Notes under the pieces: model-generated
Told to the model about the DNA's origin: nothing
The model's database searches: none
The model's input: only the letters and a program-made list of their open reading frames with translations
Part shown: piece after piece, positions 62,527 through 64,000 of the stretch
Layout of the letters: each line of letters starts with the position of its first letter
Numbering within the stretch: position 1 is the stretch's first letter
Translations under genes and position numbers: made by a program
NCBI RefSeq assembly: GCF_003334315.1
Contig: NZ_QOWR01000022.1
Source of the DNA: Escherichia coli
GTDB taxonomy: Bacteria; Pseudomonadota; Gammaproteobacteria; Enterobacterales; Enterobacteriaceae
Length of the DNA: 64,000 nucleotides
Direction: 5' to 3' (one strand)

Positions 62527-63925
62527 TTATTTCACCTGCATCCCGGTCCATTCACTCCCTGCCGCAACACTTTGCTGCGCAGGTGCATAGGAACGCACAT
62601 AACGAGCAGGAGGCAGAACGAATTGCCCTTTTTGCGAGAAGCGCAGCAAATGGCGGAAAGTGACCGTTCCCGTCAGTTCTTTCACCGGCACCATATAGGC
62701 CAGTTCGCCCATTTCATTACGCGCTTTTTCCAGCAATTGCCCCTGCTGTTTCGCGGCGTTGGGTTTATTGACTGAAATGCCCCATGTTGTGCGCTCAACG
62801 TCGGCTCCCGGCGGGAGCGGTACTTCCACCTGACCATAGCGCAGAACTGCATCCTGCTCGCTGGTAAGCGTAATTTCATCGAGATACAGCGCATCGCTGT
62901 CAATCTCATTGCTGGTCACCGGCTGCAGAGTAAAGCTCATCTCTTCTTCACCGGGGATAAGCCGATACAACTGGCGTTCAACGGTCACCGGAATGTTACT
63001 TTGTTGAGCCGTTTTTGCCGGTTCACGCCAGCGGACCTGCACATTTTGCGGCGATAATTCGTCACCAAAAGAGAGAATGTCCGGCACACCCTGACCAACC
63101 CAACGCCAGTCTTCGCCCCCTCCAGTTAACTTATGTTTAGCCCATGCGCCCGCAGGCGCAGGCAAAACAACTGGAGGCATTGTCGCCATATATTTCGCCA
63201 GCCAGTTCATGGCCAGCGCGCGCTCAATAGTGGATTGCTCAGCGGTCAAACCACTTAAAATAGCGGCCGCCTGGGTAGCGTCACCACCGCTATTGAGCAG
63301 CACAACCGTGTGCGCCAGCGGCTGATTGCTGTTTGCCGCTTTATCCCACGCATATTGCTGAACCTGTGGCATCACCGTGGACTTCAACTGCGCTTTTTTC
63401 AGCAACGTCATGGTTAAGACGTTTGCCACCGCATCTGCCAGTGGAGATTCCGGTGTATCGAGGATCAGGCTGTCATTGATATCGCGGGTGTCTTCCTCAG
63501 AGAAATCTTCATCTTTAGTTCCGCGCCGGGCGATAGCTTCATCCAACCCTTTCAACAACGTTTTGCACGGCAGATTCATCTCCTGTGCCCACGCCAGCAC
63601 CAGCGCCCGATGCAATAACGGCATGTTATCTGCCTGCTCGGCATAACTGTCGAGCATATGCTGCCAGTATTCCGGTTGTTGCGTTACGCCGAGCGCCTGG
63701 CTGGCCTGCCAGTCGGCGTACCATGCCCATGCCGTAAGGAAGGCGTCACCATTGCCATCTTCACCCCACCAGGTAAAGCGCGCTCCGGGCCCCGCCAGTT
63801 GCATCAGCCGCAGACGGTTATCCTGAATCATCTGACGAATGTCGTTAGCGGCGGCACTTTGATGATCGGCAAGCGAACGCCAAGCGAGACTGAGCGGGAT
63901 CAGACGGCTACCGGGGTTGATCACC
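62527..63925 (-). pseudogene. yfaS: 3' fragment (about 465 codons) of an alpha-2-macroglobulin-family gene, truncated by IS186
   Basis: Open frame ends at 62527 with TAA. Going upstream it hits a stop at 63934-63936, and all three minus-strand frames contain stops within 63926-64000. Full-length homologues are about 1500 aa. Confidence 0.6.
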
Positions 63926-64000
63926 CATAAGCGCTAACTTAAGGGTTGTGGTATTACGCCTGATATGATTTAACGTGCCGATGAATTACTCTCACGATAA
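63926..64000 (+). mobile_element. insL: IS186 left end (terminal inverted repeat and start of transposase insL), continuing beyond the window
   Basis: CATAAGCGCTAACTTAAGGGTTG... matches the recalled IS186 terminal IR. ATG at 63981 encodes MNYSHD(N), the recalled InsL N-terminus. Preceded by a G4N6C4 target-like sequence. Confidence 0.75.

Follow-up and report, generated by a model that had tools for sequence, protein, structure and literature searches.

Genes and features of the locus

The right-hand end of the window (the whole 64-kb stretch of Escherichia coli DNA that was analysed) holds the downstream part of the yfaS-yfaQ-yfaP gene cluster, read on the minus strand, in which yfaS is broken off by the first bases of an insertion sequence that continues to the last nucleotide (Table 1). 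The list of open reading frames gave the yfaS fragment as 62527-63924 (-), 465 aa, and in thousands of genomes the gene that matched positions 63000-63926 bears the annotation 'alpha-2-macroglobulin family protein'. Strain CP53 has an intact orthologue of 1,504 aa, and the 6,927 nt of the window leading up to the insertion point, the yfaS fragment included, showed 0 mismatches to this genome. Gene order was likewise conserved: the reading frames of the window correspond to yfaP and yfaQ downstream of yfaS, with yfaT and yfaA upstream of it in ES3, CP53 and K-12, the K-12 locus as a whole reading atoB, yfaP, yfaQ, yfaS (a pseudogene), yfaT, yfaA and gyrA.

Pfam profiles run against the C-terminal 900 aa of CP53 YfaS detected an A2M_BRD domain (residues about 631-776, 1.1e-16) and an A2M domain (residues about 841-923, 4.6e-12), and a bMG10 domain was found in the same protein at residues about 1379-1487 (1.1e-05), the sole one of the three that lies in the window fragment; the NCBIfam profiles found no family in full-length YfaS. 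Together with the syntenic RefSeq annotation, these three domains bear out the initial annotation, in which the interrupted gene had been named as the alpha-2-macroglobulin homologue yfaS. The CxEQ thioester motif is absent from the 1,504-aa CP53 protein, a feature which we take to set YfaS-type proteins apart from YfhM/ECAM-type proteins, and the Pseudomonas aeruginosa counterpart of YfaS is presumably MagD of the magABCDEF operon. The break, at codons 1039-1043 of 1504, separates the A2M domain from bMG10, in agreement with the earlier proposal that the N-terminal two-thirds of the gene are not contiguous here. Alpha-2-macroglobulins carry a thioester-type domain between A2M and the C-terminal part, and by analogy the break would fall in the equivalent region of YfaS.

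Table 1 Features at the right-hand end of the window, in window coordinates.
Feature	Position	Strand	Basis or remark
yfaP, 251 aa, last gene of the same-strand cluster	60097..60852	-	ORF list; annotated yfaP in syntenic loci
yfaQ, 549 aa, next gene downstream of yfaS	60877..62526	-	ORF list; annotated yfaQ in syntenic ES3, CP53 and K-12 loci
yfaS C-terminal fragment, codons about 1039-1504 plus stop (466 codons)	62527..63925	-	ORF list, CP53 match
Target-site duplication, left copy, GGTTGATCACC, 11 bp (13 bp, 63914-63926, counting ambiguous G and C)	63915..63925		Within GGGG-N7-CCCC, 63913-63926
IS186 left end, first 75 nt of the 1,339-bp element	63926..64000	+	100% identity to K-12 IS186A
IS186 left terminal inverted repeat, 23 bp, CATAAGCGCTAACTTAAGGGTTG	63926..63948	+	Exact reverse complement closes the ES3, PI12 and K-12 IS186A elements
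insL start: ATG, next 5 full codons (MNYSHD) and 2 nt of the seventh	63981..64000	+	

The element at the window edge

From the first base of the 23-bp terminal repeat onwards, K-12 IS186A and window positions 63926-64000 are identical at 75/75 nt, these being the 75 of 1,339 nt of the element that are open to comparison in the window. Within them the opening of insL reads ATG AAT TAC TCT CAC GAT AA (63981-64000). The initial annotation had recognised the final 75 nt as the IS186 terminal repeat followed by the InsL start, and the full identity to the K-12 copy confirms it. The letters that it quoted were found in place on re-reading the window, and its statement that the yfaS frame closes at 63934, with stops in all three minus frames across 63926-64000, was also correct, a TAG being found at 63934-63936. 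Chance resemblance over 75 nt was ruled out by the 100% identity (E = 1e-30).

Megablast placed the same 75 nt at 8,459 sites in 2,188 of 5,426 complete E. coli genomes, nearly all with 100% identity, and the matched loci were all annotated as IS4-like IS421/IS186 transposase. Genomes with IS186 among these 5,426 carry a median of 3 copies and a maximum of 22. In K-12 MG1655, the mobile element 'insertion sequence:IS186A' (NC_000913.3 15387-16731) contains insL1, an 'IS186/IS421 family transposase', and the annotated start of the ES3 transposase WP_001300563.1 (IS4-like IS421 family) is the insL start seen in the window. The 370-aa InsL scored 133.3 bits against the NCBIfam profile NF033592 (IS4 family transposase, cutoff 115), a test made on the ES3 copy of IS186, as the window itself shows MNYSHD alone.

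The IS end at the edge of the window is likely a contig or assembly breakpoint. Two C's that flank the 75 nt are also present beside other IS186 copies (K-12 IS186A reads ...TCC|CATAAG), which gives 77 nt in all (63924-64000). One may speculate that this 77-nt overhang is the end, in a repeat, of a short-read contig assembled with k=77; if so, the other IS186 junction is bound to be missing from the source assembly.

Close relatives carrying or lacking the insertion

Only one complete genome, ES3 (NZ_CM184350.1), spans the whole of window positions 63000-64000, with 99.9% identity and a mismatch at 63026. Its gene order across the locus is yfaQ, an alpha-2-macroglobulin gene without its N-terminus, an IS transposase (+), an MG2-domain gene without its C-terminus, yfaT and yfaA. 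The ES3 element is a 1,339-bp IS186 with 0 differences from K-12 IS186A, its first 75 nt are those of the window, its junction with yfaS is base for base that of the window, and yfaS resumes past the element. Everything that the initial annotation had asked to see past 64000 (IS186 with its right inverted repeat, a target duplication and the resumed yfaS) is found in ES3. Here insL is oriented opposite to yfaS, and the last residues of the upstream yfaS fragment in ES3 are ...GGVINP, after which comes a TAA located in the IS terminal repeat. A public genome already contains the same insertion, where two partial pseudogenes are annotated on either side of an IS transposase.

In a second genome, PI12 (NZ_CP074005.1), the 1,339-bp element is the same, as are the base at which it sits and the duplication, but its orientation is reversed, which is what a site-specific hotspot would lead one to expect. 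The right terminal repeat is present in both ES3 and PI12, and is perfectly complementary to the left 23-bp repeat. The C-terminal yfaS fragment of PI12 (5528-6928 of the extracted PI12 locus) is annotated with an internal stop and aligns to the window at 99.7% with a 3-nt difference in length (952 vs. 949 nt), which fits either further decay after the IS insertion or a sequencing error.

The window and ES3 come from distinct strains, as they are separated by about 36 substitutions over 64 kb in addition to three units of a 113-bp tandem repeat. An alignment of the last 24 kb of the window with ES3, HS30-1, CP53 and PI12 gave 6-9 substitutions for each pair in a star pattern; among these five strains, the 24-kb alignment contained no variant exclusive to the window and ES3, and one variant was common to the window and the empty-site strain HS30-1. 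Given its opposite orientation, the PI12 insertion is most simply regarded as independent of that in ES3, and the window insertion is possibly the ES3 insertion by descent or possibly a further independent strike.

The 113-bp repeat forms a tandem array at 37327-37766 (3.9 copies, 96% match), placed between mqo and eco by the syntenic ES3 annotation and containing three Rfam naRNA4 (REP/BIME-type) hits. The array is 339 nt (three units) longer in ES3, so its copy number varies between close relatives. A second array, with a 114-bp unit in 1.9 copies and two naRNA4 hits, occupies the rcsC-rcsB intergenic region (49564-49775). In PI12 the 24-kb stretch is about 111-118 nt shorter, and rcsB is annotated with an offset of 111 nt, pointing to an rcsC-rcsB array with one 114-bp unit fewer. 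Elsewhere in the window, yejO is an intact 863-aa reading frame (20516-23107, -), annotated 'autotransporter YejO' in ES3 and adjoining a tRNA-Pro gene (20338-20411); we take the yejO of K-12 MG1655 to be an IS-interrupted pseudogene. Two expected housekeeping RNAs were found at full length and above their Rfam gathering scores, MicF adjoining ompC (45813-45906, +) and the L25 ribosomal-protein leader adjoining rplY (16597-16622, +).

The target site and its duplication

In the window the target is made up of GGGG (63913-63916), TTGATCA (63917-63923) and CCC (63924-63926), with the fourth C of the target doubling as the first base of the IS repeat. The initial annotation had placed the insertion at a G4N6C4 hotspot; the assignment to the IS186 hotspot motif stands, but the spacer is 7 nt rather than 6, the intact site in CP53 being GGGGTTGATCACCCC, i.e. 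GGGG-TTGATCA-CCCC. Both spacings fall within the published target consensus of IS186, 5'-GGGG(N6/N7)CCCC-3' (Lee et al. 2016, PMC5009759), in which cores of six bp were found at 41 and of seven bp at 16 of 59 recovered insertion sites, with no conserved core sequence reported. The same study counted only 54 GGGG(N6/N7)CCCC motifs in the K-12 genome, some of which were struck repeatedly (PMC5009759). Across the 64-kb window we found no other GGGG-N6-CCCC or GGGG-N7-CCCC, for a chance expectation of 0.55 + 0.78 (~1.3). The IS end therefore abuts the sole such motif in 64 kb, and its position reflects target choice, not coincidence.

At both ends of the element, ES3 and PI12 carry an identical flank of 11-13 nt, GGTTGATCACC. 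A repeat search in ES3 independently returned a 13-nt direct repeat, GGGTTGATCACCC, whose two copies start 1,350 nt apart, and inverted arms of 26 nt; these lengths exceed 11 and 23 because the G and C runs of the target merge with the ends of the repeats. K-12 IS186A sits in GGGG-ATCACT-CCCC and is flanked by a 10-bp duplication, GGATCACTCC. The string GATCAC, which includes a GATC Dam site, occurs in the core of both GGGGTTGATCACCCC and the K-12 IS186A target GGGGATCACTCCCC (about 177-190 of the extracted K-12 IS186A locus), and this sharing between two IS186 cores is probably a coincidence.

The K-12 allele and the frequency of the insertion

K-12 MG1655 had been described as having no IS186 at this locus, which proved right: its yfaS aligns ungapped across the site, with no gaps between CP53 and K-12 over 4,515 nt and 99.05% identity. 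At the site (about 7186-7200 of the extracted K-12 locus, where yfaS occupies 5799-10403) K-12 reads GGTGTTGATTACGCC, and the GGGG-N7-CCCC motif is absent. On the coding strand the K-12 and target alleles differ at three bases, two of them synonymous (GGG/GGC and GTG/GTA) and one exchanging Pro and Thr (CCC/ACC). With GGTGTTGATTACGCC in K-12, the yfaS site is not among the 54 K-12 motifs of Lee et al. (PMC5009759).

The exact empty 61-mer of this lineage was present in 96 complete genomes, most others falling in a band of 95-99% identity, and K-12 showed 3 mismatches in the 61. As K-12 reads GGTGTTGATTACGCC and these 96 genomes share the empty 61-mer, the motif is seen in some yfaS alleles only. 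IS186 was found at the yfaS site in two of the 5,426 complete genomes (ES3 and PI12) and not in K-12, in line with the earlier description of a strain-specific insertion; expressed over the complete genomes with the target allele, the site is occupied in 2/98, plus the source of the window.

A broader proposal would make the hotspot allele-specific, the three base differences from K-12 creating GGGG-N7-CCCC, with IS186 having struck there repeatedly and independently (in ES3, in PI12 and possibly in the window); taken with the K-12 nonsense allele, it would have the loss of YfaS recurrently selected or tolerated in commensal E. coli. We regard this proposal as a whole as unlikely. If it were true, the IS186 target in yfaS would be a lineage-specific mutational switch.

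Origin of the junction

The reading that we hold with high confidence is that IS186 transposed into yfaS at GGGG-TTGATCA-CCCC and split the gene, the window ending within the element. By analogy with ES3, the source genome would continue past 64000 as a simple insertion, with the whole element and its target duplication. In the mechanism that we propose, IS186 (1,339 bp, IS4 family, DDE transposase InsL, 23-bp perfect terminal inverted repeats) would have entered yfaS through staggered cuts made by the DDE transposase in the G4-core-C4 target, and repair would have duplicated the core, giving the 11 bp GGTTGATCACC. Past 64000 this predicts that IS186 runs on for another 1,264 nt to its end in CAACCCTTAAGTTAGCGCTTATG and is followed by GGTTGATCACC, after which come CCACCCCACGGTTCATCGAC and the rest of the yfaS codons below 1043.

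Of the alternatives, the best placed is that IS186 did insert, but that the junction is now the endpoint of a larger deletion or inversion produced by IS186-IS186 recombination, with DNA other than yfaS beyond the element. In E. coli, recombination between IS copies has been documented to give rise to deletions (PMC5009759), IS186 is present in several copies per carrying genome (median 3, up to 22), and the far side of the element is outside the window. We nevertheless judge a rearrangement to be very improbable, as both ES3 and PI12 show a simple insertion, with a matching duplication and the remainder of yfaS, yfaT and yfaA directly beyond it, and the window contains no signs of rearrangement.

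Less probable again is an assembly artefact, in which a short-read contig would end in, or be misjoined to, an IS end, and yfaS would be free of IS186. The window does stop 75 nt into a multi-copy repeat, as is typical of short-read contig breaks, and its source genome is absent from the 5,426 complete RefSeq E. coli genomes, whose one full-length match, ES3, differs at 63026. However, the join coincides with base 1 of the IS repeat and falls within a canonical GGGG-N7-CCCC, a target rule that a chimera is not expected to obey, the junction is base-identical in the independent chromosome-level assembly of ES3, and a contig merely ending in an IS repeat still implies a real junction. That the element is IS421 rather than IS186, as the PGAP label 'IS4-like element IS421 family transposase' at every matching locus could be read, has a negligible probability, and IS421 as a separate element was rejected, since IS421 is a family label, the K-12 annotation puts the same protein in 'insertion sequence:IS186A', the ES3 element is base for base the annotated K-12 IS186A, and the visible 75 nt are inseparable from IS186.

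Probable consequences for yfaS and the downstream genes

Under simple insertion of IS186 into yfaS, the upstream YfaS fragment, of about 1,043 residues, would stop at the TAA in the IS terminal repeat and lose the C-terminal third of the protein, and the 466-codon downstream fragment would be left without promoter, start and the N-terminal 1,038 codons. YfaS would be inactivated, and, judging from the sequence, the function of the gene has presumably been lost by the insertion. A polar effect on the downstream genes yfaQ and yfaP is also probable, both being expected to show lower expression. A consensus scan of the complete ES3 IS186 found no promoter-like sites, and 2 terminator-like sites for 1.9 expected, which is at chance level; the scan therefore gives no basis for outward transcription from IS186 or for a defined terminator within it.

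For annotation, the window strain carries a presumed null allele of yfaS, probably polar on yfaQ and yfaP, that should be called a pseudogene. Beyond that, the yfaS insertion is of minor importance, being an ordinary strain-specific event in a non-essential gene; such events are fully known, and no difference from the reference IS186A was seen in the element. No paper on IS186 in combination with yfaS came up in a search of the literature. The locus is of use as a clean natural example of the IS186 target rule, with the element entering at one exact base, facing either way, and the site existing or not according to three SNPs.

Comparison with known IS186 insertions and yfaS loci

Of the IS186A, IS186B and IS186C copies of K-12 (IS4 family, InsL), IS186A has the same 23-bp repeat, the same insL spacing and the same first codons as the window copy. 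Location alone differs, there being no K-12 copy within yfaS. A hotspot for IS186 in the lon promoter of E. coli B was reportedly described by SaiSree et al. in 2001. Like the yfaS site, the lon-promoter hotspot and those of Lee et al. (PMC5009759) present a palindromic G4/C4 frame, which encloses a 7-bp core here, and the known hotspots also resemble the yfaS site in that the core is duplicated together with flanking G/C bases and that insertion occurs at the same base either way (ES3 vs. PI12). The lon hotspot lies in a promoter, whereas the yfaS site lies in coding sequence and in a minority yfaS allele only. As to the target gene, the K-12 YfaS cluster (yfaA-yfaT-yfaS-yfaQ-yfaP) shares with this locus its synteny, the A2M_BRD, A2M and bMG10 domains and the absence of CxEQ; however, yfaS is inactivated in K-12 by a stop at codon 1368, whilst in the window it is split by IS186 instead.
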